64,000 bases of DNA from Nitrospirota bacterium. Its GTDB lineage: Bacteria > Nitrospirota > UBA9217. Positions 25,120 through 38,637 of the stretch are shown here, piece by piece. How positions within the stretch are numbered: position 1 is the first letter of the stretch; each line of letters starts with the position of its first letter. Both the position numbers and the translations under genes were made by a program. Under the pieces are notes generated by a model. That model was not told where the DNA came from and did not search any database. It saw only the letters and a list, made by a program, of their open reading frames with translations. Location: assembly GCA_963740085.1 (NCBI GenBank), contig CAVUCU010000003.1:96001-160000 (forward strand). The letters are read 5' to 3'.

Positions 25120-26940
25120 TTACATCTCCACCCTGGTCACCACGCCGTGGAGCTTGTTGTACGGGAGTTTGTAGAATTGGACGATGTTCGGGGTAAGACG
25201 CTTGATGATCGCGAAAAGCTGCCAGATGACATTGCTCGGCAGGATGTCCTCGACGCCGTAAAAGATCGTCTTCTCGTGGATCCCCGCCTCGCGCAGGATC
25301 TCCTCGACATCAGGTACCTCCATGTAGCCGGTCTGTATCTCGAAGGACCGGAGCCCGGGGGCCAGGCTTTCCTTGAAGAACCCCGTGGTGCCGAAGGGGT
25401 CCTCACGCTTGACGATGGAGATTATGATATTGTCCTCATAAATGATGTTGTTCTTGAATATGGTATGCACGACGTAGGGGGGGACCTCCTTCGCGTCCCT
25501 CGCGAAAAAGAGCGCGGTCCCCTTGATCCTGCTCATGGTCTGATAGATCTGCGTGTAGCTCGGCAGGAAGACGTCGATCGGCAGCGGCTGGAGCACATTG
25601 TAGAGCTTCCGCTGGCCCCTGCGGTAGACCATGATGATCAGGAACGGTATTGCAGCGATGATGATCGACCAGTATCCGCCATGGGGGATCTTATAGGTGT
25701 TGGAAATGAAATATGTCAGGCAGACGAAGGTCACGACCACCGAGAGCGCCGCGTGTCCGAACCTTCTCTTGAGATAGAAGATCCAGGTCATGAAGATGCC
25801 GGTAAGGGTCATGGTGCCGGTGACCGCAAGGCCGTAGGCGGCCGCCAGCCTGCTGGACTCCCGGAACTCCATGATGATAAAAAGCACCGAGAAAAGCAGG
25901 AACCAGTTCACAAAACCGATATAGATCTGGGAATGACGCTCCTCGGACGTGTAGTCCACCTTGAACATGGGCATGATGCGTGTGGTGATGCCCTGGTAAA
26001 CGATCGAGAACATGCCGCTTATCATGGCCTGAGACGCGATGACCGTGGCAATGATCGAGAGAAGCAGGAACGGGATGTAGAGGAAGTGCGCCTGATGATT
26101 CACCATCTCGAACAGCACGTTCCTGGCCTCGGGATGCCCGATGAGGAACGCCCCCTGACCGATATAGTTGAGTACCAGGGCGAAGAACACAAAATACCAG
26201 GCCCGCACGATCGGCTCGCGGCCCAGATGCCCCATGTCAGCGTAGAGAGCCTCGCCGCCCGTGGCGCACAGAATGACCTCGGAGAGTACGAAGAACCCGG
26301 CGATCCCGTGTTGGGCCATGAACTTGAAGGCATAGTAGGGATTCACCGCCTTGACCACCGAAGGCATAGTAAAGATCGAAGCAATGCCGGACAGCGTCAG
26401 GGCTGCAAACCACAGAATCATGAGCGGCCCGAAGGCCCCGGCGACCCGCTCGGTCCCCTTCTTCTGGAACGAGAAGAGCAGAATGGCGATGGCGCCGGCG
26501 ATGATGACGAGGGAGGTCTGGGCCGTTCCCTCAAACCCCTTGATCAGAAGCATGCCCTCCACGGCGCTCAGGATGCTGATGGCCGGCGTGATCACGCCAT
26601 CGCCGATGATGAGCGAAATGCCAATGAACGAAAGCAGGGTGACGACCGCGGCCTGCCTGCCCGATTTGAGAAGCGGGACCAGCAGTTCCCTGAGCACGAT
26701 GGTACCGCCTTCGCCGCGTTTGCCGAGGCTCATGGCCAGCCAGGCGTATTCCACGGTCACCAGGATGACGAGCGTCCAGACAATGAGGGACAGGACGCCT
26801 ATCACGTTGTCCTCGGTCCGCACGATCGTCGGCAAGAGAAAAATGACCGTAAGCGTGTAGATCGGGCTCGTGCCGATATCGCCGAACACGAGTCCGAGAG
26901 ACTTTATGATTCCTTTGGCTGGGGACACTTTGTCAGGCAT
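25120..26940 (-). CDS. kup: KUP/HAK/KT potassium transporter
   Basis: LGLVFGDIGTSPIY, GEGG, DGVITPAIS and EALYADMGH motifs. Confidence 0.95.
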   Translation of the reverse strand: MPDKVSPAKGIIKSLGLVFGDIGTSPIYTLTVIFLLPTIVRTEDNVIGVLSLIVWTLVILVTVEYAWLAMSLGKRGEGGTIVLRELLVPLLKSGRQAAVVTLLSFIGISLIIGDGVITPAISILSAVEGMLLIKGFEGTAQTSLVIIAGAIAILLFSFQKKGTERVAGAFGPLMILWFAALTLSGIASIFTMPSVVKAVNPYYAFKFMAQHGIAGFFVLSEVILCATGGEALYADMGHLGREPIVRAWYFVFFALVLNYIGQGAFLIGHPEARNVLFEMVNHQAHFLYIPFLLLSIIATVIASQAMISGMFSIVYQGITTRIMPMFKVDYTSEERHSQIYIGFVNWFLLFSVLFIIMEFRESSRLAAAYGLAVTGTMTLTGIFMTWIFYLKRRFGHAALSVVVTFVCLTYFISNTYKIPHGGYWSIIIAAIPFLIIMVYRRGQRKLYNVLQPLPIDVFLPSYTQIYQTMSRIKGTALFFARDAKEVPPYVVHTIFKNNIIYEDNIIISIVKREDPFGTTGFFKESLAPGLRSFEIQTGYMEVPDVEEILREAGIHEKTIFYGVEDILPSNVIWQLFAIIKRLTPNIVQFYKLPYNKLHGVVTRVEM

Positions 26941-27220: not shown

Positions 27221-29812
27221 CTATTGATTTTTCTCATTGTTTGCCCCCGGGTTCCCGGAGGCCTGATCCTCATATCTTCCGTCCAAAAAGTTCCTTGCAT
27301 AGCGTTTTACCGACTGGTCGTCCTGAAGCACGGCATCCAGCTGCCGGGTAAAGGAGATCAGTCTGCCAATCTGATCGAGAATACTTTCCGCCTCGCTCCT
27401 GACGATGTTCGCGAGCCGTGCAACGATCAAATCGCCTTTTGTCTTGCTATTGAAACCGTACTCGCCGAGGATCTCAGCGATGAGCTGCAGCCTCCTCGAA
27501 CGCTTGGTTATGTCGGTGGCGCCCCCGGTGAACCGGAAATAGATATGATTGTTGCGAGTGTTCTCGCTGCAAAAACAGTCCAGGATGATGAAATGATAGC
27601 CGAACTTCAGGCTGATGTTCGCGTATTCCCGGGAGATGACGGCCATGTTCGATTCCACGCGGCTGCCGCCGTCGGACATAATGTCAGGCATGCGCAGCAT
27701 GCTCGACATAAAGTCATTGACCTTCAGCGGGACTGCATCGGAGCGCCAGATGCCGGGGCGGGTCATGCCGCTGATCAGCGCCCGAAGCGGCAATGAGGTG
27801 ACCTGCCCGGCTGTGATGTTGCCCGTGTGCACGGAATTATCCAAGCCCCCGCCGATATCGATGACCATGATCCCGGCGGGGATCGTCAGGTCTAATTTTA
27901 CGGCACTGGCCTTCACGCCGAACTGCGCGGTCTCGATCAGCTCGGCAACCGATTTCTCATGGATAAAGCGCAGGATATCATGCATGGTCTTGCATGCCTG
28001 TGGTGTAAACTCATCCCGCAAAGGATCGACAAGGTTCAGTGGAGCGATGTAGCGCAGGAGATACCTTTTTTTGCGGAACTCCGAAAGTTCGTCCATCTTT
28101 GCGGAGTTGTTTCGCGCGTGCTCCACGACCTGCCTGACCAGCCCCTGGTAAATGGTCGCCCCTTCGTTCTCCACCTGAACGGTGATCTCCTGGCCGTGTG
28201 CAAGCAGCTGCGTTGCGTTGCCCGCATTCACGACCGCAGGTATCCTGAACTCCCTGCACAGGGCCGCCATATGGCTCGTCGGCGCTCCCGTGTCGGTGAT
28301 GATCGCGGATACGTCGGTCATCACGCGGACAAAATGGGAAGAATCGTGACGCGCAACAAGGATGGCGCCCTTTGGAATGGAATCAAGCTCGTTGAGGTTC
28401 TTAAGAACGAACACCCTGCCGGCCGCCACGCCGTTCTGGACGGCGAGGCCGCTGTTCTTCACGAGAACCTGTGCATCAGGCGCGTGTGGTTCTGCGACAT
28501 CCGTGTGATTATCATCGCCTGAGAGCCGGAGCGGCCGGGCCTGGAGGATGAACGCCCGCCCCTGCCTGTCGAATGCCCACTCGATGTCCTGGGGCCTGTG
28601 GAAGTGCTTTTCGATCAGCAGCGCCAGTCGGGCGAGCTCGGCGACCTGTCCGGGATCAAGGCTCGGGCGCATTCTTTTTTCATGCGGCGTTTCCATGGTC
28701 GTCACGCCACCCTGCTCACTTCCGATGACCATCGAATCCTTCGTGCCGATCCTCGTCTCGATGATCTCCCGCTCGCCGCTCTTGTTCACCAGATAAAGAT
28801 CGGCATCGGTCTGGCCTTCCACGACGGAGGTGCCGAGTCCCCACGTGGCATTGATGATGAGCATGTCCCGGTTTCTCTGCTGATCGATCGAATACAGCAC
28901 CCCGCTTGTCGCGGCTTCCACCATCACCACGCACCCGACGGCCATCTTCATGTCCCTCGGATCATACCCCAGCCTCTTCTGATAGATCGATGACGTTTCG
29001 GAGAAAAGGCTTGCGAGCACTATCCGGTACGCCTTCTCAACTGCCGCGGTTTCGAGCGGTACGTTCAGAACGGTTTCGAATTGTCCGGCAAACGAAAACT
29101 CCCCGTCCTCCTCCCCCGCGCTGCTCCGCACGGCGAGGGAACACTTTCCCCTGCACCGTGATCGTATCTCGTTGACGGCCTTGTCGATTTCACGGTGAAG
29201 GTCTGGCGGCATCTCTCCTTGCAGAATACGCGCATGCACGTCGTGCAGGGGCACCCCCGGAACCGGGGCAGCGTCCCGCGGAAGCTGTCGCTTTTCAAAG
29301 ATCCGATTATGCCCCATGTAGGCATCGAAGGCCCGGGTCGTCACCGCAAAGGCATCGGGCACGTTCAGCTTCAAGGCGTTCTTGACCTCCGCGAGGTTGG
29401 AGTTCTTTCCGCCGATGTCCCGCACCATATCGCCCGTTACCTGCTCATAGAAGACGACGAGATCCTTTGCCCCGATGACGGTTTCGTCGATGACATGCCT
29501 GATCCCCTCGTCTATTTCCCGGAACTTCTCACGAAGCTGCGGATACCGTTTGTGGGTAAGTACGTCGAAATCGCGGAGGGAGTCTCCCACGGCAACGTGA
29601 AGGTCGGCATAGGATCTTCTGACATACTGAATGTCGAACAGATAGTCCCCGCCAAGGGTATCACCCATGTCCGTAATGATCTCGAGTGCCTTGTTGTTAT
29701 CGTCGAGGACCTGGCGGAATCGGGAGAACAGCAGCTCGAACGACTCCCGATCGCTTCGAACGCCCCGGAGGGTCCGGTACAGTGAATTCAGTTTTCCGGT
29801 GAAGTTTGTCAT
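27221..29812 (-). CDS. PEP-synthase/PPDK-like phosphotransferase (ATP-grasp plus phospho-His domain, atypical termini)
   Basis: GGKNSNL, AVRSSA.EED..SFAGQ, QDIEWA, LQARP and G.PTSHMA motifs; no recognisable pyruvate-binding barrel. Confidence 0.85.
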   Translation of the reverse strand: MTNFTGKLNSLYRTLRGVRSDRESFELLFSRFRQVLDDNNKALEIITDMGDTLGGDYLFDIQYVRRSYADLHVAVGDSLRDFDVLTHKRYPQLREKFREIDEGIRHVIDETVIGAKDLVVFYEQVTGDMVRDIGGKNSNLAEVKNALKLNVPDAFAVTTRAFDAYMGHNRIFEKRQLPRDAAPVPGVPLHDVHARILQGEMPPDLHREIDKAVNEIRSRCRGKCSLAVRSSAGEEDGEFSFAGQFETVLNVPLETAAVEKAYRIVLASLFSETSSIYQKRLGYDPRDMKMAVGCVVMVEAATSGVLYSIDQQRNRDMLIINATWGLGTSVVEGQTDADLYLVNKSGEREIIETRIGTKDSMVIGSEQGGVTTMETPHEKRMRPSLDPGQVAELARLALLIEKHFHRPQDIEWAFDRQGRAFILQARPLRLSGDDNHTDVAEPHAPDAQVLVKNSGLAVQNGVAAGRVFVLKNLNELDSIPKGAILVARHDSSHFVRVMTDVSAIITDTGAPTSHMAALCREFRIPAVVNAGNATQLLAHGQEITVQVENEGATIYQGLVRQVVEHARNNSAKMDELSEFRKKRYLLRYIAPLNLVDPLRDEFTPQACKTMHDILRFIHEKSVAELIETAQFGVKASAVKLDLTIPAGIMVIDIGGGLDNSVHTGNITAGQVTSLPLRALISGMTRPGIWRSDAVPLKVNDFMSSMLRMPDIMSDGGSRVESNMAVISREYANISLKFGYHFIILDCFCSENTRNNHIYFRFTGGATDITKRSRRLQLIAEILGEYGFNSKTKGDLIVARLANIVRSEAESILDQIGRLISFTRQLDAVLQDDQSVKRYARNFLDGRYEDQASGNPGANNEKNQ

Positions 29813-29817
29813 GGCCT

Positions 29818-30192
29818 TTACGGCTGTTTTTCCAGCGCCCGTTTGATAGACGCCTTCAATTCCTTTATCTTGACAGGTTTCGGGAAAAAGTCATGCACGT
29901 CCCTTCGGAGCGCCTCTATGGCCGCATCGAGGTTTGCGAAGGCCGTGATCATGATGACCTGGGTCGCGGGATAGAAGTCTTTCACGGTTTTCAGCACCTC
30001 CATCCCGTCGATTCCCTTCATCTTGTAATCCGTCACGACAACGTCAAATTTTTCTTCCTGCAGCCGCTTCAACGCCGGTTCGGCGTTCAGAAAGGTTTCA
30101 ACAGCATAGCCTTCCTGTTCAAGCGACAGTTTCGCCATGTCGCCTACGATTTTTTCATCGTCAATGACCATGATTCTGTAATTATTACTCAT
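29818..30192 (-). CDS. single-domain response regulator
   Basis: VIDDE, VTDYKM, ITAF and FPKP motifs. Confidence 0.9.
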   Translation of the reverse strand: MSNNYRIMVIDDEKIVGDMAKLSLEQEGYAVETFLNAEPALKRLQEEKFDVVVTDYKMKGIDGMEVLKTVKDFYPATQVIMITAFANLDAAIEALRRDVHDFFPKPVKIKELKASIKRALEKQP

Positions 30193-31597
30193 TGTTCTTC
30201 TCCTCTATTTTATAAGCGGGGAGCTTGATGGTAAAGGTGGTGCCCACGCCGACCTTGCTCTCGACCCTGATCTCGCCCTTATGATTTTTTATGATGCCAT
30301 AACTGACTGACAGGCCCAGGCCCGTCCCCCCTTCTCCCTTGGTGCTGAAAAAAGGATCGAAAATATGGGGGAGAAATTCGGGTGCTATGCCCTTGCCCGT
30401 GTCCGCGACACCTATCTCAATGGAATTTCCGCTCTTTCCCGGCCTCGTGGTAAGCACGAGCCTGCCGCCGGCGGTCATGGACTGAACCGCATTGGTGATC
30501 AGGTTCACCAGGACCTGCTGAATCTGGCTTTCATCCACGAACACCGGGGGCAGACCGTCGGCAAAATGGAGCGAGGTCTCAATGTTCGACACGTCGATCA
30601 TATTCTGCACAAGGGTGAGCGTCTTCTGTATCACCGCGTTGATGTCCGCCTTGTTCGGGTTCGCATCCTTGGGCTTTGAAAAATCAAGCAGGTTCTTCAC
30701 GATCTTCCGTATCCGCTCCGTCTCAGCATCAACCTTAGTCATGAACTCGATCCGGTCACGCTCGCCGAGCTTTGGATACAACTCTGCGTAGGTCTGTGCG
30801 ATCATCGATATATTGTTGAGCGGGTTGGTGATTTCATGGGCCACGCCCGCGGTCAGAATGCCGAGCGAGGCGAGCTTCTTGGACTGGATGATTTCCTCCT
30901 CGCGGTGCGCCAGCTCCTCGGACATCGAGTTCACCGCATTGATGAGCGAGCCAAGCTCGTCTTCATACACTGCTCCCTCAATCTTGTTGAAATTCCCATG
31001 GGAGATCGATTTCGCAAGCTTTTCGATCTCCCGAAGGGAACGCACGATCTTCTGGGAGATGAAATGGCCGATCAGGAGTGCCGAAACGAGTATCGCCCAG
31101 AACAGGAGGATGAGTATCCGCTTCGAACTCAGGATGATGTCGTTCACCCGTTTCCGTTCAAGGTGGGTGATCGAATCGGAAAATTCCTTCAGTTTTTTCC
31201 CTTCGGCCCTGATCCGGACTTCCATCTGCGGATCTCCCGGGGTGCCTCTCGCCGCCAGGTCAACAGTGGCAGAATAGGCCTTCAGACGCGACTCCAGCGT
31301 ATCCAGGTCGGTATTGCCGATCGCCCGGATGATGTCCTCGCGCACTTCTCCGATAGTATCCATGGTTTTCGTGATACTCTCGCGTATCGCCGGGAGCGCC
31401 TTGTTGTCCTTGTAAAGAAAATAGTTTTTCTCCGAAAGCCTCATTTCCAAGAAAGACGCATTGAGGTCATCGGCGATCTCCACGAACCGGAGCTTCGTGA
31501 GAACAAGGCTCATGTTCTGAAAGGCGAAGAAACCGATCAGGATGATGAATGCCCCGTTGATGACATTGGAAACGATGAGTTTGTTTTCTATCTTCAT
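30185..31597 (-). CDS. membrane sensor histidine kinase with HAMP domain
   Basis: Two TMs, AHEITNPL, NLITNA, DTGKG, FDPFFSTK and GTGLGL. Confidence 0.92.
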   Translation of the reverse strand: MKIENKLIVSNVINGAFIILIGFFAFQNMSLVLTKLRFVEIADDLNASFLEMRLSEKNYFLYKDNKALPAIRESITKTMDTIGEVREDIIRAIGNTDLDTLESRLKAYSATVDLAARGTPGDPQMEVRIRAEGKKLKEFSDSITHLERKRVNDIILSSKRILILLFWAILVSALLIGHFISQKIVRSLREIEKLAKSISHGNFNKIEGAVYEDELGSLINAVNSMSEELAHREEEIIQSKKLASLGILTAGVAHEITNPLNNISMIAQTYAELYPKLGERDRIEFMTKVDAETERIRKIVKNLLDFSKPKDANPNKADINAVIQKTLTLVQNMIDVSNIETSLHFADGLPPVFVDESQIQQVLVNLITNAVQSMTAGGRLVLTTRPGKSGNSIEIGVADTGKGIAPEFLPHIFDPFFSTKGEGGTGLGLSVSYGIIKNHKGEIRVESKVGVGTTFTIKLPAYKIEEKNNE

Positions 31598-31615: not shown

Positions 31616-32845
31616 TTACATCGGCACGGGACACCGCGGGATCTCCGCCTGCTCCTTTCTGACCGGCAAATACCACAGGAGGCCGTCCACGGCCATGAAC
31701 ACCCCCGCCGCGATAAGCAGTGAATCGAAGACCGTCAGAAAACTGAACCCGAAATAATGCATTAGCCCGAACCCGACCGTGGTAAACGAAACACCGGTAC
31801 GAATAAATGCCAGTCCTGTCCTCGCTCGCGCATAGATCGTCCGGTAGCAGGCGGCCACGGTCCGCTGGGCCGCGAGCACATTACGCTCGCGCGCCAGATG
31901 CGTGCGTTCCCTGCTGGCCGGCGAAGGAAAGAGGATAGTGCAGTGACCGCCGAGACAATCGCCAAGCCGGGCGAGCATGGTCCCCTTCGTCGGTGATGCG
32001 ACCACGCACTGATCGAGATAATGGTAGTTATCAAGGAACTGGAGCGTCGCCGCGGTCACCTCGATAAGCGTCTGGTGCCCGGGCTTTTTTATCCTGGTTC
32101 TCCTTACGTTTAAATACCCTGTCAGACCGAAAACGCCCAGCGAGATGCCGGCCGCGATCATCAACCAGTATACGGGCGTCATCGCGCCGGCAGCATGAGT
32201 TCGCATCAGTACGTCTGACAACGCGATAAGACCCAGCCCCCATCTGAGGATGGCAAGTTCGGTGCGGCCCTTTGCCAGGTCATTGCGGTAGCAGGCCAGC
32301 CGCGTTCTCCAGTGAGCCATGGTGTTTCGCCAGAAGGCGAGGCCGGTCCTCTCCGTCCCGATCAGCAATCCGGGTTTTGCGTGCAGGTAGTCCTGTATGA
32401 ACCACTGGAGGTCCTCTTCAAGCGCCACCCAGAACTCATACTGTTCGGCCTTGATGGCTTTTCTGACCTCGTCATACACACGCTGATCCTGCGGATCATG
32501 CGCTGCGATAATGACGGTTTTCCCGTCATGAATGATCGGGAACCACAGACTGAGGGACAGCCATTCGCCGTCGAGTCCTGTGAGACATTCGGGGGGTATG
32601 GGCATCCTCTCGTCATATTCCACGAAGGGGCACTTGCAGTATTCGGACAAAGCGGCCAGAAGCGTGCTCTTTGGTACGCCGTACTCGCGAATGAGAATCC
32701 CCTCGATGTCGATCCCCCGGGCAACGGCAGCCTGTTCGGCTTGACGCAGCTCATCGTTCGTCAGCACTCCCCAATCCATCAGAATGAGAAACCGCCCGGA
32801 CTGCCGTCCTGATTTCACATCGTTTTGAGTTGTTTTAGAGGTCAT
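31616..32845 (-). CDS. T2SSE_N/MshEN-like domain fused to two DUF202-like membrane units
   Basis: N-terminal G.L...EL..A...LSEY...PFVEYD...WFP...DP.D; two RTxLA heptad runs each followed by a TM hairpin. ATG 32845 lies inside the last codons of the upstream gene. Confidence 0.75.
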   Translation of the reverse strand: MTSKTTQNDVKSGRQSGRFLILMDWGVLTNDELRQAEQAAVARGIDIEGILIREYGVPKSTLLAALSEYCKCPFVEYDERMPIPPECLTGLDGEWLSLSLWFPIIHDGKTVIIAAHDPQDQRVYDEVRKAIKAEQYEFWVALEEDLQWFIQDYLHAKPGLLIGTERTGLAFWRNTMAHWRTRLACYRNDLAKGRTELAILRWGLGLIALSDVLMRTHAAGAMTPVYWLMIAAGISLGVFGLTGYLNVRRTRIKKPGHQTLIEVTAATLQFLDNYHYLDQCVVASPTKGTMLARLGDCLGGHCTILFPSPASRERTHLARERNVLAAQRTVAACYRTIYARARTGLAFIRTGVSFTTVGFGLMHYFGFSFLTVFDSLLIAAGVFMAVDGLLWYLPVRKEQAEIPRCPVPM

Positions 32846-34481
32846 CGTGACTGAATACCGCTTTTTTCCAGGAACTGGACAGCGTCCCGTAATCGGGAAG
32901 CGTGATCTCCATTTCCCCGTAACAATACGGAAATTGTTTCCTTGTTTTTTCAGCGGGGAGATGCCAGTAAAGCCCGTCGGCAATAAACAGCAGTCCTGAT
33001 AGGATCAGCACGACGTCGAATATGGTCCACCAGACATTTCCTGCGCCGAAATAAACCAGCAGTCCCAGGCCCACCGCGGAGATGCTCATTCCCGTTCTGA
33101 TGAACGCCATTCCGGTCCGGGACCGGGCCATGACGGTGCGGAGCCGTGCCATCACGTTCCTCCGCTCCGCAAGGAGGGTCCGTTCCAGGGCAAGACCCGT
33201 CGTGGCCCAGATCCCCGGAGAGCGGAACCCCTTCACCGGGGGAAGAGGCGTGCGAATGGTCTCAAACTTTTCGTGTTTAAACACAGGAGGAAAAACCGCA
33301 TCCCAAATACTCGGTTTATCCTCCGAGCTTTTTACGACTTGCGAACTTTTTGCGCCGGCGTGACGACCGGGCAGGTACCAATAGAATCCCTCTGCCACCA
33401 TGACCATCCCCAGGATGATAAGCACACCGTCAAGTGCAACCCAGAGACCGTCATGATATTGTCTGAACAATGCAATGCCGATCCCGATAAAGGCGATCCC
33501 GGTGCGCGTGAAGGAAAGCCCCGTACGCGCCCGCGCCATGAGCGTACGATAGCATGCAAGGACCGTCCGTTCTTCGGCAAGGTCCGTCCTGTCGCTCGCC
33601 AGAAACCTCCGGCGCATGACCGGAGAGAGTTTGTTCCATCCGCTCCGGAGCTTTTCGGCCTGAGATGCCTCACCGCTGCGGCTGAAAACCGGGTCATCCC
33701 CGGGGTTGGAAACTTGAAGCACGGTCGATCCGCCCGTCGGCTCCGTCGATGAGCAGTCCAGGTGCTTTTTCCCGACAATACGGGCAGGGAGATACCATTT
33801 CACGCCGTCTGCCGTCATGAACACACCCGCGACAAAGAGCAGCACCTCGACGACCATGAGATAGCCCACGCCGAAGATTCGGAAGAGTACCAGGGCGATC
33901 GTGATAAAAGAGAGACCGGTCCGCAGGAAGGCAAGCCCCGTTCTCCCCTTCGCCAACGCCGTCCGAAAATAGGAAAGCATCGAACGACGGTCGGCGAGAA
34001 AGGTCCTCACCTTGGCAAGCGGGGTCCTGCCCGCAGAGGGGGGGAAGCCGGGGTTCAAATCCTGATTGTGCTCTATGATCCTGATAAGGTCTGCGGCAAG
34101 GGCAACCCGGAACTCAATGTTCTTGACCTGAAGCGTATGCCTGATATCGTCGATCACCTTCGGGTCGTCGGGATAAGAGGCGATGACCTCGGCCGAATCC
34201 TGCTGGACCGACAAGGGCAGCCACAGAACGTGTTTCAGCCTCTCCATATCCATACGCCGCACGACCTGCTGAGAGACGATGACACCCTCGTCGTATTCTA
34301 CAAAAGGCGCGTTATAATATTCCGAGAGACAAAGGAGTATCTCGTGTTTGGGAATATCCGCGGCTCTCAACAGCTCTTCGAGCGAAGTCCGTGAGAGTTC
34401 CGCTTCCCGTATGAGCCGGTCCAGCTCCTCACCGGAGAGAACGCCCCTTTTTATTAACCGTTTAAATTTTTTGCGTTCCAT
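32835..34481 (-). CDS. T2SSE_N/MshEN-like domain fused to three DUF202-like membrane units
   Basis: Same N-terminal domain; three RTxLAxx heptad runs (e.g. RTDLAEERTVLA) each ending RTG..F.RTG plus two TMs and WYLP/WHLP. Confidence 0.8.
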   Translation of the reverse strand: MERKKFKRLIKRGVLSGEELDRLIREAELSRTSLEELLRAADIPKHEILLCLSEYYNAPFVEYDEGVIVSQQVVRRMDMERLKHVLWLPLSVQQDSAEVIASYPDDPKVIDDIRHTLQVKNIEFRVALAADLIRIIEHNQDLNPGFPPSAGRTPLAKVRTFLADRRSMLSYFRTALAKGRTGLAFLRTGLSFITIALVLFRIFGVGYLMVVEVLLFVAGVFMTADGVKWYLPARIVGKKHLDCSSTEPTGGSTVLQVSNPGDDPVFSRSGEASQAEKLRSGWNKLSPVMRRRFLASDRTDLAEERTVLACYRTLMARARTGLSFTRTGIAFIGIGIALFRQYHDGLWVALDGVLIILGMVMVAEGFYWYLPGRHAGAKSSQVVKSSEDKPSIWDAVFPPVFKHEKFETIRTPLPPVKGFRSPGIWATTGLALERTLLAERRNVMARLRTVMARSRTGMAFIRTGMSISAVGLGLLVYFGAGNVWWTIFDVVLILSGLLFIADGLYWHLPAEKTRKQFPYCYGEMEITLPDYGTLSSSWKKAVFSHDDL

Positions 34482-34550
34482 AAGGTTATTATACCATTCG
34501 GCGGGGAAACAGCCTAACAGAAATGACTTTTCATGACGGAGTTCAAGGTC

Positions 34551-34583
34551 AAAAAGAGATGGAGGCGTTTTTGCGCCTCCATC
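34551..34583 (-). terminator. intrinsic terminator downstream of tatA
   Basis: GATGGAGGCG-N6-CGCCTCCATC followed by a T-run on the minus strand. Confidence 0.7.
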
Positions 34584-34712: not shown

Positions 34713-34895
34713 TCAAGCCTTCATTTTTCCCTTCTGATCCTGCTCGACACCTTCGGTTCTGTCCCGCAAACCCTCTTTAAAACCCCTGATCGCCTTGCCA
34801 AGACCCTCGCCAAGCGCGGGAAGCCTGTTCGGCCCGAAGATCACCAGGGCAATGACCAGAATGACCACCATTTCAGGAAATCCAAGGTCTCCCAT
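34713..34895 (-). CDS. tatA: twin-arginine translocase TatA/TatE subunit
   Basis: GFPEMVVILVIALVIFGPNRLPALGEGLGKAIRGFK, with an AAGGAG RBS. Confidence 0.92.
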   Translation of the reverse strand: MGDLGFPEMVVILVIALVIFGPNRLPALGEGLGKAIRGFKEGLRDRTEGVEQDQKGKMKA

Positions 34896-34954
34896 ATGTT
34901 CTCCTTTACCATACCGAAATGAACAATAGTACGAATATTCCGCTTCAAGCCTTT

Positions 34955-35377
34955 TTATACGCTCACGACGTACACCGGACACGGCGCCAGGTTGATGACC
35001 TTTTCCACAATATGATCGCCGAACAGCCGGCTCAGGATGCCCTTCTTCTTTTTCGATCCCATGATGATGAGGTCGCACTGCTCTTCTTCCGCGACTTCAA
35101 CGATCCTCTGCGGGACATCGCCATGTTCAAGTCTCGTCTTGATCAGCGCCCCTTCGGTCTTCGCCATCTCGTGAATCTCCGAAACGGCCTTTGCACCGCC
35201 GTCGTCCAGCACGTCATTCAGGTTCTTGATCCCGGTCAGATCAAGATCGCCGTCGAACGGACGGAGCACCTTCACGACCGTGATCCAGGTCTTTTCATCC
35301 TTGGCCATTTTGATCCCTTGTTCCAGGACCTCTTTATGTCCATTCAAAGCAATAAGTACTTTTCTGTACCCTTTCAT
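34955..35377 (-). CDS. universal stress protein (single domain)
   Basis: YRKVLIA, DLIIMGS and APCPVYVV motifs. Confidence 0.88.
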   Translation of the reverse strand: MKGYRKVLIALNGHKEVLEQGIKMAKDEKTWITVVKVLRPFDGDLDLTGIKNLNDVLDDGGAKAVSEIHEMAKTEGALIKTRLEHGDVPQRIVEVAEEEQCDLIIMGSKKKKGILSRLFGDHIVEKVINLAPCPVYVVSV

Positions 35378-35382
35378 TTTAC

Positions 35383-36246
35383 TCACCTCACTATCAGTAT
35401 CGGACGGGCGGCATGGGCAATGATCCGTTCCGCAGTACTTCCCATGATCGCCTTGTTCATGCCGCTCCAACCGTGGGTCCCCATGACGATCAGATCGTTC
35501 TTGAACTTGTCGGCGAGTTCAACGATCTTGTCGCTCGCATGGCCTTCCTGAACCACTGCCTTGATCTGTACTCCGAGTCCGGCTGCGATCTTCTTTGCGC
35601 CTTCGAGTATTTTCTCAGCCTCCTGGAAAAGGCTTTTCGTGATGGACTCGGTCTTATAAAAATTCACCATCTCTTCATAGCGGGGGATTACATAGAGGAC
35701 CGTGATCTCTCCACCATCGAGCTTGGACAGTTCGCAGGCACGGTCCAGCGCCTTTTTGCTGGACTCGGAGCCATCAAAGGGGACCAGCAGGGAGCTGTAT
35801 ATCCCGGTGCATCTGGTGCATTCCCTGGTCACCACCAGCACATCGCAGGGTGCGTTCATGATGACCTGTGACGCCACACTGCCCATCAGCAGCCGTTTGA
35901 GCCCCTTCCGTCCGTAGGTGCCGAGGGCGATAAGGTCGGCCTTCTTCCCGTTGGCCATGTCAACGATAACCTCGGGCGGCTCGCCCTCGCAGATCATCGA
36001 CTCAACATTGCCGTTCAGACCGAACTCATCGTGAATGTTATTTTTTGCGGCGAGACAGACGGATGTGCCGAACTCGAACCGTTTCTCCATCTGTGAGGGC
36101 AGAATGGAGAACTCTTCCTGGTCGAAATAGACCGCATGGATAAGGAAGAGCTTCCCCCCGTGCACCTTTACCCATCGGGAGGCCTCTTTCAGCGCGGCCT
36201 TGCTCGATAGCGACTCGTCATAGCCTACAACAATGGAGTTATACAT
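35383..36246 (-). CDS. universal stress protein (tandem domains)
   Basis: Two USP units with GTYGRKG..LMGSVA and GTHG..G...MGSTA. Confidence 0.92.
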   Translation of the reverse strand: MYNSIVVGYDESLSSKAALKEASRWVKVHGGKLFLIHAVYFDQEEFSILPSQMEKRFEFGTSVCLAAKNNIHDEFGLNGNVESMICEGEPPEVIVDMANGKKADLIALGTYGRKGLKRLLMGSVASQVIMNAPCDVLVVTRECTRCTGIYSSLLVPFDGSESSKKALDRACELSKLDGGEITVLYVIPRYEEMVNFYKTESITKSLFQEAEKILEGAKKIAAGLGVQIKAVVQEGHASDKIVELADKFKNDLIVMGTHGWSGMNKAIMGSTAERIIAHAARPILIVR

Positions 36247-37082
36247 CAGTGAGAACCTCCACCTTTCTTGAACACCATGCTTACGCCTACGCCTGCGCCA
36301 AGCGCGACGCCGATGGCAAGAAATCCGTAGATCGCCGGGCTGTTCTTCGCCATGGTTGATAACGTCTTGACCATGCCGACCTGCTCTACGTTGACCTTTG
36401 ACTGGGCCTGTTCTACGACTTTATTGTCCTTCACGGCATAGACCGAGACAAGGTAATCGCCGGGCTGGGCCTGGTAGGGCCAATCGGTGAGGATATAGTA
36501 TTCCTGCTTTCCGTCCGAGTTCATGGTTGTCTCGATTTTTCCGGACGACGTCGTATACACTTTGGACTCTTCCTTGAACTTGACGAACTCATCGAACCAT
36601 TTTGCCTTCTCTTCCTCGTTCGCGACCGGGGTTATATCCACATGTTTTGCAAGCGCGGGATAGCCGATTACATATTTTTCCCTTTCTTCGCGGCTCAGGA
36701 TGTCTTCAACCTTCTTCGTGCTGAAGACCTCGTAGAAGTTGGGGGTCTGATCGAACTTCAGTTTGCCCACGTTCATCCACAACACCCCCGCGACCTTGCC
36801 CTTCTGCTTCAATACCTGATGCCCTTCGGGAGAGGCTATCTTGATGACCAGGTCCACGCCCGGCTCCGATATGCCCCGCACGCTCACCGTGCTGCCATGA
36901 TAGAAGAAGTCGATGGTAATGTGGTCATGGTTTGCCCTGGCCGTAAGCATGGCCGACGCCGGTTTTGCACCGGCAAGCTGGAACAGGGAAAACACGAGCA
37001 TGAGAAGTAACGTGCCCAGGAATCTTGTACTGCCGATGAATCTGGCAAAGTGCATTATGAATGAATGGAGTTGAATATGCAT
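36246..37082 (-). CDS. TIGR02186-like partner protein of the TauE permease
   Basis: Signal peptide, KGKVAG.LWMN, P.FY, PGDY.V and a C-terminal TM; directly follows TauE. Start uncertain. Confidence 0.7.
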   Translation of the reverse strand: MHIQLHSFIMHFARFIGSTRFLGTLLLMLVFSLFQLAGAKPASAMLTARANHDHITIDFFYHGSTVSVRGISEPGVDLVIKIASPEGHQVLKQKGKVAGVLWMNVGKLKFDQTPNFYEVFSTKKVEDILSREEREKYVIGYPALAKHVDITPVANEEEKAKWFDEFVKFKEESKVYTTSSGKIETTMNSDGKQEYYILTDWPYQAQPGDYLVSVYAVKDNKVVEQAQSKVNVEQVGMVKTLSTMAKNSPAIYGFLAIGVALGAGVGVSMVFKKGGGSH

Positions 37083-37083
37083 T

Positions 37084-38010
37084 TTAATGTCCTCCTACTT
37101 GAGAGAGAAGTAACGACGGGGTCAATGTAACCTCGAAGACGATCTTGACCGTCACCACGAGCACGATCACCGCGAGGAGGATCTTGAGCTGTTCGGCCTT
37201 GAGCTTCCTGCCGAACACGGTGCCGATCTGCGCCCCTACGGTCGAACCCAGGAGCAGGAGCACGGCGAGCAGGAAGTCCACGCTGTGATTGGTGTATGCC
37301 TGGAGGAACGTGACCTCGATGCACGTGAACAGGATCTGGAACAGGCTCGTACCGACCACCACGTGCATCGGCATCCTGAGCAGGTACACCATGATCGGCA
37401 CCATCAGGAACCCGCCGCCCACGCCCATGATCGCGGCAAGAATGCCGACAAACCCGCCCAGCACGATCGGAACGAACACGGAATGAGTGATGCCCGACTT
37501 CTCGAAGTGTGTCTGAAGCGGCAGGGATTTCAGGAACCTGCCCATCGCGGATTCTTTTTCTTTCTTCACTTCTTCTCCGGCCACATCCTTTTTCTTCCTC
37601 ATGCTCTGGAGGCTCTCGATGAACATGTAGACGCCGACGATGCCGAGCATAAGGATATAGGTAATCTTGATCACGAAATCGGCATTGCCCATGGCATGGA
37701 GGAGTTTGATGACCTGAACGCCGACGATGCCGCCGATAAATCCGCCGACAAGCAGATACAGCCCCATCTTAAAGTCCACGTTCCCCACCCTCCAGTGCGC
37801 ATAGGTGCCGGACGTGGATGCCGCCACGATCTGGTTGGAATCAGTTGCCGCGGCAACCGTCGATGGTATGCCGAACATGATGAGAAGCGGCGTCAAGAGA
37901 AATCCGCCGCCTACGCCGAAGAGACCGGAAAGCAGTCCCACGGCCAGCCCGAGCCCAACGGGGATCAGGATATTGATGCTGGTCAATGCTACAGGTAGAT
38001 ACAGGTACAT
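37084..38010 (-). CDS. sulfite exporter TauE/SafE (DUF81) permease
   Basis: SGLFGVGGGFLLTP, MGVGGGFLMVP and VGTSLFQ motifs. Confidence 0.92.
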   Translation of the reverse strand: MYLYLPVALTSINILIPVGLGLAVGLLSGLFGVGGGFLLTPLLIMFGIPSTVAAATDSNQIVAASTSGTYAHWRVGNVDFKMGLYLLVGGFIGGIVGVQVIKLLHAMGNADFVIKITYILMLGIVGVYMFIESLQSMRKKKDVAGEEVKKEKESAMGRFLKSLPLQTHFEKSGITHSVFVPIVLGGFVGILAAIMGVGGGFLMVPIMVYLLRMPMHVVVGTSLFQILFTCIEVTFLQAYTNHSVDFLLAVLLLLGSTVGAQIGTVFGRKLKAEQLKILLAVIVLVVTVKIVFEVTLTPSLLLSQVGGH

Positions 38011-38072
38011 CTCGATAGCTCCTTTTCTTTATTTAAAATTTTTACTGCAAAAACCCGCAGAGCCTCTGATTC

Positions 38073-38146
38073 GGCATGGAGCAGAGCGCATGAACTCCTG
38101 TGCTTTGCTCTCTGCCCTCTGCTTTCTACTCTTTGTCCTTCGCTCC
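38073..38146. repeat. degenerate 7-mer repeat hairpin
   Basis: GGCATGGAGCAGAGCGCATG ... TGCTTTGC TCTCTGC CCTCTGC TTTCTAC TCTTTGT CCTTCGC. Confidence 0.6.
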
Positions 38147-38637
38147 TACGCCACCGCGCAGGCCTGCCTGGTCATGGTCACGATCGGCCGCGACGCTGTC
38201 CGCACAAGCCGGCTCAGATCCTTTGAAGTGACGTTCCCTGCCTCGGTAATTGCGGGGCTCAACACGACCTTATCGATACCCGCATGTTCCTTGATAAATT
38301 TTCTTATGCCTGATATCGCATCCAGACTTGTGGCATGGACATTCGCCTGAATTCCTTCGTTAAGGCATTTTTTCACAACAGTGTCTACCTCTTTTTCGTA
38401 GATGCCCTTCACGACCTGGGAAGTCATGATCTGTTGCGCCGTATCGTGCTCGCCGGCCTCGGCAAAGCTCACGGCTGTCATCATGTTTCCCAACTTATCC
38501 ATGAGTGAGCTTTGCTTCTGGACGAAAAGGAGCGTGATGTCCTCATACATAGCCTTTGCAAGCTCGATAGCGTACGAAACCCCTTCTTCCAAATTTTCAT
38601 CCCGGAAGGTGACGAACAACAACTGCCTCTTTCCCAT
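38146..38637 (-). CDS. degenerate USP-like protein with FAEAGE motif
   Basis: YAIELAK...I.LLFV, MTAVSFAEAGEHDTAQQIM and RPIVTM; AGGAGG RBS. Confidence 0.75.
   Translation of the reverse strand: MGKRQLLFVTFRDENLEEGVSYAIELAKAMYEDITLLFVQKQSSLMDKLGNMMTAVSFAEAGEHDTAQQIMTSQVVKGIYEKEVDTVVKKCLNEGIQANVHATSLDAISGIRKFIKEHAGIDKVVLSPAITEAGNVTSKDLSRLVRTASRPIVTMTRQACAVA

Follow-up and report, generated by a model that had tools for sequence, protein, structure and literature searches.

DUF202 (PF02656) is annotated as the membrane domain of the Vtc subunits (PMC7283521). As described in PMC9911596 and bioRxiv 10.1101/2023.01.27.525886, yeast VTC is a heteropentamer of Vtc1, Vtc3 and Vtc4 in a 3:1:1 ratio, with three membrane helices per subunit (transmembrane helices TM1 to TM3). 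The TM1 helices form an inner ring that lines the pore, in which Vtc1 K24 and R31, together with the equivalent residues, make up two basic rings with a spacing of seven residues; when these rings were mutated, vacuolar polyphosphate (polyP) was abolished. The latter source further describes an E30-R83 lock that joins TM1 and TM3 of neighboring subunits. Here, two genes of the same family, A and B, are considered, found at positions 31616 to 34481 of a 64,000-nucleotide (nt) stretch of DNA from a Nitrospirota bacterium (assembly GCA_963740085.1, contig CAVUCU010000003.1, positions 96,001 to 160,000), referred to in its entirety as the window. An earlier note on this DNA had likened the pair to VTC, taking DUF202 to be the VTC membrane domain and the VTC channel to be a heteropentamer, premises that agree with the sources cited (PMC7283521, PMC9911596). 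The A and B proteins contain three and two DUF202-type units, respectively. As a model, there is good support for a VTC-like anion conduit, with these 3+2 units forming a pseudo-fivefold, arginine-lined ring that is related to the pore of VTC.

Gene A (32835..34481, minus strand) encodes a protein of 548 amino acids (aa) in which an N-terminal domain of the MshEN/GSPII fold precedes three DUF202-type units, while gene B (31616..32845, minus strand) encodes a 409-aa protein with a similar domain followed by two such units, as reflected in the open reading frames (ORFs), in Pfam matches and in AlphaFold2 (AF2) models. The longest ORF for gene B begins with a TTG at 32983; because homologues are 395-421 aa long, the ATG at 32845 is instead the likely start, and from there gene B overlaps the end of gene A by 11 nt. 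In Pfam, A was matched by MshEN (E 2.9e-9, residues 57-141) and by DUF202 in three stretches (E 5.9e-15, 55.9 bits against a cut-off of 23.4), and B by MshEN (E 1e-10) and by DUF202 in two stretches (E 8e-5, 23.4 bits, exactly the cut-off). Both proteins were matched by the PF02656 hidden Markov model (HMM) at or above its gathering score, and neither carries a T2SSE ATPase domain according to Pfam. The two proteins are paralogues, aligning over 393 columns with 34% identity (E 5e-58), and theirs are the sole DUF202 genes found in this 98.5%-complete genome, using a scan that recovered four of their five units at E<=1e-3. Much of what the earlier note had read from the letters at this position, namely, two overlapping paralogous ORFs, a T2SSE_N/MshEN-like domain without an ATPase at the start of each, membership of the DUF202 family, for which it had called for the HMM scan reported here, and three repeats in one gene as opposed to two in the other, was borne out, the last by the Pfam stretches and by the arginine chains described below.

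All five units are encoded on the minus strand. Unit A1 (33774..34046, A residues 146-236) presents arginines at residues 152, 159, 166, 173, 180 and 187, unit A2 (33357..33629, A residues 285-375) at 291, 298, 305, 312, 319 and 326, unit A3 (32943..33200, A residues 428-513) at 434, 441, 448, 455 and 462, unit B1 (32096..32368, B residues 160-250), the most divergent of the five, at 166, 173, 180, 187, 194 and 201, and unit B2 (31652..31924, B residues 308-398) at 314, 321, 328, 335, 342 and 349, with a two-helix hairpin following in each case. The spacing is exactly i+7 in every unit (six, six and five arginines in A, six and six in B). When each protein was subjected to 20000 residue shuffles, chains of at least five arginines at i+7 appeared in 30 shuffles of A and in 11 of B, with at most one such chain per shuffle, as compared to the three and two observed. 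In the AF2 monomer models (predicted local distance difference test score, pLDDT, 81.8 for A and 76.6 for B), each unit comprises one continuous helix of 49-56 residues and then a second helix of 28-41 residues, with the turns on the far side of the membrane, i.e., the periplasmic loops, being only 3-5 residues long. As modeled, the layout of a unit is that of a cytoplasmic stalk that runs into a two-helix membrane hairpin, in line with the run of 5-6 arginine heptads plus a hairpin that had been proposed from the sequence. Because the best Pfam DUF202 stretch (A residues 312-369, within unit A2) begins only at residue 312, the canonical DUF202 domain would include just the last two or three arginine heptads, with the earlier heptads representing an extension.

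The arginine ladder is conserved. When 42 A-type and 43 B-type sequences, 47-92% identical to the proteins of the window, were aligned, heptad position 1 proved to be arginine in 100% of the sequences for 28 of the 29 stalk columns, the exception being B R194 (97%). Positions 2 (T, N or S), 4 (L or M) and 5 (A) are near-invariant, and positions 3, 6 and 7 are variable. Taken together, the five 36-residue stalks hold 41 lysines and arginines as compared to 10 aspartates and glutamates, such that the stalk charge is not neutralized within the protein, which argues for the presence of some bound anion or polyanion. Basic residues are also found at the outer end of the first helix, namely, A R201 (97%), A R340 (100%) and B R215 (86%).

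The distribution of units over two genes is likewise maintained. Across 19 loci drawn from species-representative genomes, 14 contain an intact gene encoding the MshEN-fold domain and three units, followed by one encoding that domain and two units, four (L005, L015, L020 and L023) contain frame breaks and, in the last (L022), the A-type gene ends after unit 1. Four of the intact loci and one broken locus come from the Desulfobulbaceae (Desulfobulbia), with the others all being from Nitrospirota. In an unselected set of 64 genomes of the same class as the window, a survey that overlaps the 19 loci such that the two counts are not independent, A was detected in 37, and in each of these a B-type match lies next to it in the same orientation. 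The 36 other A-positive regions were then compared with an HMM based on the five units of the window, which revealed intact 3+2 pairs in 31 (and hence in 32 of the 37 A-positive genomes once the window is included), the pair being interrupted by frame breaks or by the end of a contig in the remaining five. Among these 37 genomes, no intact pair with any other number of units was found. As such, the survey of homologues that the earlier note had suggested reveals a strictly conserved 3+2 pairing, extending to Desulfobulbaceae. Against 1.84 billion representative sequences, the unit profile yielded 1636 matches at E<=1e-3, the best 150 of which include three-unit, two-unit and one-unit proteins; no protein with four or five units of this arginine-heptad type was seen among these best 150. 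Most of the representatives that seemed to join an MshEN domain to one unit were set aside, as they proved to be incomplete or frame-shifted stretches of A- or B-type genes.

The assembly of the two proteins was addressed by complex prediction using A residues 146-548 and B residues 160-409, each with its own alignment and at 1:1 stoichiometry only. The A-B interface scored ipSAE values of 0.72, 0.71 and 0.69, as compared to 0.00 for the best of three controls, with a partner pLDDT of 61-64 and at least 75% agreement in contacts between runs. Of 80 solved complexes, 58 attain the pass mark for this score, as do 2 of 110 mismatched pairs, rates that are only rough when alignments are supplied by the user. 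In the model, helix 1 of A1 (152-202) packs along helix 1 of B2 (310-363) and helix 1 of A3 (430-476) along helix 1 of B1 (163-213), with helix 1 of A2 making no contact with B, as would be needed for a closed ring in the order A1-A2-A3-B1-B2. Each helix meets one neighbor through heptad positions 1, 2, 5 and 6 and the other through positions 7, 1, 4 and 5. The resulting contact wedge of about 110 degrees would fit a five-helix ring.

These predictions suggest how the complex might be built and used. A and B would assemble 1:1 to place five DUF202-type units in a closed ring, with the first helices, each running for some 50-55 residues from the cytoplasm into the membrane, forming an inner ring and the second helices an outer one. 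Since they face both neighbors, heptad positions 1, the invariant arginine, and 5, the invariant alanine, would be directed at the central axis of the ring. The result would be a stack of five to six rings, about 10.5 Å apart and with up to five arginines in each, that extends the two basic rings of VTC. A conduit of this sort, strongly positive in charge and uncompensated, would most likely bind and conduct an anionic, and probably phosphorylated or polymeric, substrate between the cytoplasm and the periplasm. The dikinase encoded downstream would be the most likely source or energizer of the cargo, and the MshEN-fold N-terminal domains would more likely act in docking or gating than as nucleotide sensors.

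The likeness to yeast VTC is one of family, number and layout. Both systems belong to DUF202, both comprise five units (as solved for VTC and, for A-B, as reflected in the conserved 3+2 pairing and the predicted ring), both are pseudo-symmetric heteromers of paralogous units and, in both, the first helix of the unit provides the inner ring, although for A-B this is predicted. In each, basic residues lie seven apart on this first helix, these being K24 and R31 in Vtc1 and the last two arginines of each stalk in A and B. By contrast, A-B would contain five to six arginine rings rather than two, borne on cytoplasmic stalks that span about 35 residues in each unit, is made up of two polypeptides rather than five chains and bears MshEN-fold N-terminal domains in place of any SPX or polymerase (VTC/TTM) domain. 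As the units of A and B possess no TM3, they can have no lock in the form of the VTC E30-R83 pair; at the same time, the absence of TM3 lets the units stand in tandem in the same orientation. A and B are filed as members of the DUF202 family with a new architecture and not as members of the VTC complex.

Other relatives are more distant in build. Bacterial YidH-type proteins belong to the same Pfam family, and many A and B homologues are labeled 'uncharacterized membrane protein YidH (DUF202 family)' by JGI, yet YidH-type proteins are of about 100-130 aa and contain one unit, without the stalk of five to six heptads, the MshEN domain or tandem units. No functional study of bacterial DUF202 proteins was found in full-text literature searches of main texts for DUF202 and YidH, in which the YidH articles were judged from titles and the openings of abstracts; a study of E. 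coli alanine exporters names YidH in its abstract, and the other articles listed did not seem to deal with this protein. Two articles returned in this context (PMC6393860 and PMC10434189) were rejected, as they concern DUF2023 and DUF2024. The CorA/Mrs2 pentameric Mg2+ channels present a long cytoplasmic stalk helix that is continuous with the pore-lining helix, then a second membrane helix, in a fivefold arrangement. The resemblance of A-B to this layout is by analogy only, CorA/Mrs2 being opposite in charge and homopentamers of one-unit chains; the VIA-align score for human MRS2 (Z 7.7) is within the noise for helical models and does not imply homology.

Several representatives retrieved with the unit profile extend the picture of the stalk. 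P0264, P0267, P0277, P0272 and P0265, all metagenomic, contain a single DUF202 hairpin preceded by 12-20 consecutive xRTxLAx heptads, corresponding to an arginine-every-seven helix of up to about 140 residues, and therefore the arginine stalk is a module of variable length in the wider subfamily. In P0385, a DUF202 unit is fused to a transporter of the SBF (sodium/bile acid symporter) family, while P0361 holds four canonical DUF202 stretches. Four further arginine-heptad matches, P0346, P0369, P0337 and P0345, are without membrane segments and were dismissed as ordinary coiled-coil or unrelated proteins. In A and B themselves, the cytoplasmic linkers and tails around the units (A residues 238-286 and 517-548; B residues 251-309) contain conserved short strands and invariant or near-invariant cysteines, including A C243, A C520 and that of an 'RCP' sequence near the C-terminus of B; A residues 514-524 contact B in the complex model.

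The N-terminal domains of A (34047..34481, minus strand, residues 1-145) and B (32369..32803, minus strand, residues ~15-159) were assigned the GSPII/MshEN fold by structure and profile comparisons. The A domain matched 5htl_B in Foldseek (E 2.2e-4, TMt 0.75) and was assigned to PilF GSPII by profile (E 2.8e-10), while the B domain matched 5htl_B in VIA-align (Z 13.8, root-mean-square deviation 3.5, 139 residues aligned); TMt values for the two domains ranged from 0.65 to 0.75 in Foldseek. As defined in PMC5013675, the MshEN receptor of cyclic di-GMP (c-di-GMP) contains two 24-residue RLGxx(L/V/I)(L/V/I)xxG(L/V/I)(L/V/I)xxxxLxxxLxxQ motifs, for which a relaxed search form is also given. The 42 A-type and 43 B-type sequences contain neither the strict nor the relaxed form, and because the motif is missing from all 85, canonical c-di-GMP binding by these domains is unlikely; the RLG motif had already been described as degenerate from the sequence of the window. 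A and B thus share the fold and an above-cut-off Pfam MshEN match with the domains of MshE, PilF, PilB and XpsE, yet their domains precede no ATPase, and in having lost the motif they are like the N-terminal domain of XpsE, for which loss of c-di-GMP binding is described in PMC5013675. The term 'DUF202' was not found in the main text of that article by full-text search. Although the MshEN-fold domains are without the motif, three of the six other loci that were inspected contain genes for GGDEF diguanylate cyclases close to the module, some of them with REC fusions (L012:15184-17906, L018:2783-3907 and L021:164-580).

Downstream of B, three further genes complete a module in which all members overlap or are separated by gaps of at most 18 nt. 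A histidine kinase gene (30185..31597, minus strand; HAMP-HisKA-HATPase_c) begins 18 nt after B, a gene for a REC-only response regulator (29818..30192, minus strand) overlaps the kinase gene by 8 nt, and a gene for an 863-aa dikinase resembling phosphoenolpyruvate (PEP) synthase (27221..29812, minus strand) follows, these assignments resting on Pfam and, for the first two, on synteny as well. The dikinase contains PPDK_N and a mobile histidine domain in which TSH is present, although its ends, corresponding to the N-terminal ~115 and C-terminal ~300 aa, have no domain assignment. It aligned with the NCBIfam PEP synthase model over positions 4-478 of 798 (329.6 bits, the cut-off being 598) and with PDB entry 2ols over residues 117-571 only. 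No Pfam match was obtained with the C-terminal 304 aa and nothing usable with the N-terminus, searching up to E 5, and an Atlas query with the C-terminal domain returned only its own family. When compared with PEP synthase (pyruvate,water dikinase), the ATP-grasp and mobile histidine domains are present, and no match identifies the C-terminal part as a PEP/pyruvate-binding domain. A match of the periplasmic part of the kinase to 4HB_MCP_1 (E 0.22, in a Pfam search up to E 5) was discarded as unusable.

In 16 of the 19 loci, spanning both Nitrospirota and Desulfobulbaceae, B is succeeded by the kinase, regulator and dikinase. Of the exceptions, L020 retains matches to the regulator and dikinase that pass the coverage filter, L021 extends no further than the regulator and, in L022, the dikinase alone is present. 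Among the 64 class genomes, an orthologue of the dikinase C-terminal domain (E<=2.8e-98) was detected in 34, namely, in 33 of the 37 A-positive genomes and in 1 of the 27 A-negative genomes. For each of the four A-positive genomes that lack it, no more than about 3 kb of contig remains downstream of B. Paralogues of this domain (32-37% identity) are also found away from A and B in open frames of about 1060-1090 aa (in G016, G017, G042, G046, G001, G027, G030 and G020), pointing to a wider family of dikinase-like enzymes with the same unassigned domain.

Considered as a whole, the reading that A and B form a 1:1 membrane complex in which a five-unit, arginine-lined ring acts as an anion conduit within this five-gene module is the one preferred here, albeit tentatively and with slightly less than even confidence. 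Several observations weigh against it. The units contain two membrane helices in the AF2 models as opposed to three in VTC, no VTC chain was matched when the unit profile was compared to PDB sequences, and whole-chain Foldseek and VIA-align searches gave only generic helical matches for the membrane parts, with no VTC chain among the matches listed, a result which is not evidence against a shared fold. In the complex model, the heptads of A1 are level with those of B2 (A R173 with B R335), yet A3 and B1 are shifted by one heptad (A R448 with B R180), which may be either a genuine offset or a misregistration of the kind common with repeats. The pLDDT of the model is only moderate (61-67), a tightly packed five-helix bundle would yield the same contact pattern and, VTC being solved, the pass may reflect memory of a solved look-alike. 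The genome, moreover, encodes no PPK1, PPK2 or VTC polymerase domain (PF09359) that could be found, a Ppx-GppA family gene (C1:140381-141268, G000) being the only polyP-related gene detected. Finally, P0308 appears to be a genuine protein with an MshEN-like domain and a single B2-like unit and, at L022:7953-11142, an A-type gene stops after unit 1, with the dikinase lying within 86 nt and B, the kinase and the regulator missing, an arrangement that represents a deletion remnant or an assembly join. The idea of a 3+2 heterodimer forming a pseudo-five-fold, arginine-lined coiled-coil channel, first put forward in the earlier note, thus stands as regards the conserved pairing and the 1:1 prediction it had called for, which passed with closed-ring contacts, but not as regards the VTC unit, given the two membrane helices rather than three. 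The functional side of that idea, as concerns polyP and gating by the N-terminal domains, is not supported. Among the fold matches of the membrane parts, those to ABC exporters, syntaxins, designed bundles and the like were discarded as lying within the noise range for helical models, as was a TetR match of the unit profile in PDB (E 0.42) as chance.

That the contact pattern does not separate a pore from a packed core bears on the possibility that nothing crosses the membrane, such that A-B would be a non-conducting sensor or scaffold. In this case, the closed, arginine-lined bundle would bind an anionic ligand (lipid head groups, polyP or a metabolite rich in phosphate) that serves as a cofactor in structure or regulation, and would signal to the kinase, regulator and dikinase through the MshEN-fold domains. 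The tight operon with a two-component system and the very short periplasmic loops suit this possibility, as do the titles of the solved PilB(N-terminal)-PilZ and EpsE-EpsL complexes, in which GSPII/MshEN-fold domains serve as binding modules. On the other hand, the closest characterized relative of the unit, VTC, is a pore, and the axial alternation of arginine and alanine, together with the basic residues at the outer end of the first helix, suits a through-path better than it does a plug. A sensor or scaffold is considered unlikely, although it retains real weight. Alternatively, A and B could each form separate homo-oligomers, or join larger mixed assemblies, with 3+2 reflecting no more than the history of duplication. 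The long-stalk relatives with a single unit must homo-oligomerize if they form rings, a canonical protein with four DUF202 stretches exists (P0361), and a single stoichiometry was covered in the complex prediction. Still, adjacent and translationally overlapping genes with three and two units are found in 32 of 37 genomes, none of which shows another intact number, and the predicted contacts involve precisely the terminal units of each chain (A1 and A3; B1 and B2) and leave A2 free, as a closed five-membered ring would need. A different assembly is considered highly improbable.

With regard to cargo, the preferred conduit reading is cast in terms of anions in general, while the earlier note had named polyP or another polyanion; direct support for polyP was not obtained. 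If A-B were a bacterial counterpart of VTC that translocates polyP, the co-operonic dikinase-like enzyme would replace the polymerase. Membership of DUF202 and the ring model agree with this, the arginine rings match the phosphate-binding rings of VTC, the dikinase has an intact ATP-grasp domain and histidine carrier, an unassigned acceptor domain and a tendency to co-occur with A, and the Ppx-GppA gene lies in a genome without PPK1, PPK2 or the VTC domain. Yet only one of the 64 class genomes was found to contain PPK1 and none PPK2, irrespective of the module, and the Ppx-GppA protein may instead serve (p)ppGpp metabolism. The idea that the module complements missing PPK was dropped, as the 37 module-positive and 27 module-negative genomes offered no contrast; because the lack of PPK is a trait of the entire class, equal in the 27 genomes without the module, it gives no complementary pattern. 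We know of no dikinase of the PEP-synthase superfamily that makes polyP, and polyP is possible as cargo only if the dikinase-like enzyme here does so. A polyP translocator is thus considered quite improbable. Bolder still, and slightly less probable again, is the scheme in which the module is an independently assembled bacterial analogue of VTC that operates in lineages without PPK1 and PPK2. Here, the dikinase would build a phosphate-rich polymer, i.e., polyP or a relative, from ATP via phospho-histidine, would dock on the MshEN-fold domains and would feed an A3B2 arginine tube that exports the product to the periplasm, under the control of a periplasm-sensing kinase and the REC protein.

The surroundings of the module were also inspected. 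Upstream of A, a terminator-like hairpin (34558..34583, minus strand; 10 pairs, seven of them GC, with a T-run) follows tatA and separates the upstream genes from A. A TATAAT preceded by TGg, read by eye, lies at 34488..34493 on the minus strand and ends 6 nt before the A ATG at 34481, where no Shine-Dalgarno sequence is present; as such, the transcript may be leaderless, and TGgTATAAT is a possible promoter of an A-B-kinase-regulator-dikinase transcript. A two-hexamer promoter scan called no promoter at 34488..34493. The sigma-54 promoter pattern was rejected, with 24 matches as compared to 26 expected. PADLOC assigned none of A, B, the kinase and the dikinase to a defence system and returned generic REC matches only. 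Beyond the five module genes, the flanks vary between loci. The upstream set in the window (34713-38637, minus strand) includes genes for an unknown 163-aa protein, TauE/SafE, Alph_Pro_TM (TIGR02186), a tandem Usp, a single Usp and TatA, and recurs with its gene order unchanged in most of the Nitrospirota loci that have sufficient upstream flank, L012 being an exception; the TauE/Alph_Pro_TM pair is also found near the module in Desulfobulbia locus L021. A gene for a Kup K+ transporter comes after the dikinase in the window (25120-26940, minus strand) and in its closest relative (L005:8764-9786), and is not found there in more distant loci.

As judged from full-text searches, mechanistic knowledge of DUF202 comes only from the structures of yeast VTC. 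The A-B pair would offer a natural concatenated pentamer, in which 3+2 units on two chains fix the order of the subunits, which would make the stoichiometry and pore of the family directly testable, and presents an extreme arginine ladder, with about 29 invariant arginines on one predicted axis. The conserved, dikinase-like enzyme partner adds to the interest of the module. Should the cargo be a phosphate polymer, the module would represent a new route of polyanion export in anaerobic bacteria of the sulfur cycle without known polyphosphate kinases; should it consist of small anions, A-B would represent a new pentameric anion-channel architecture.

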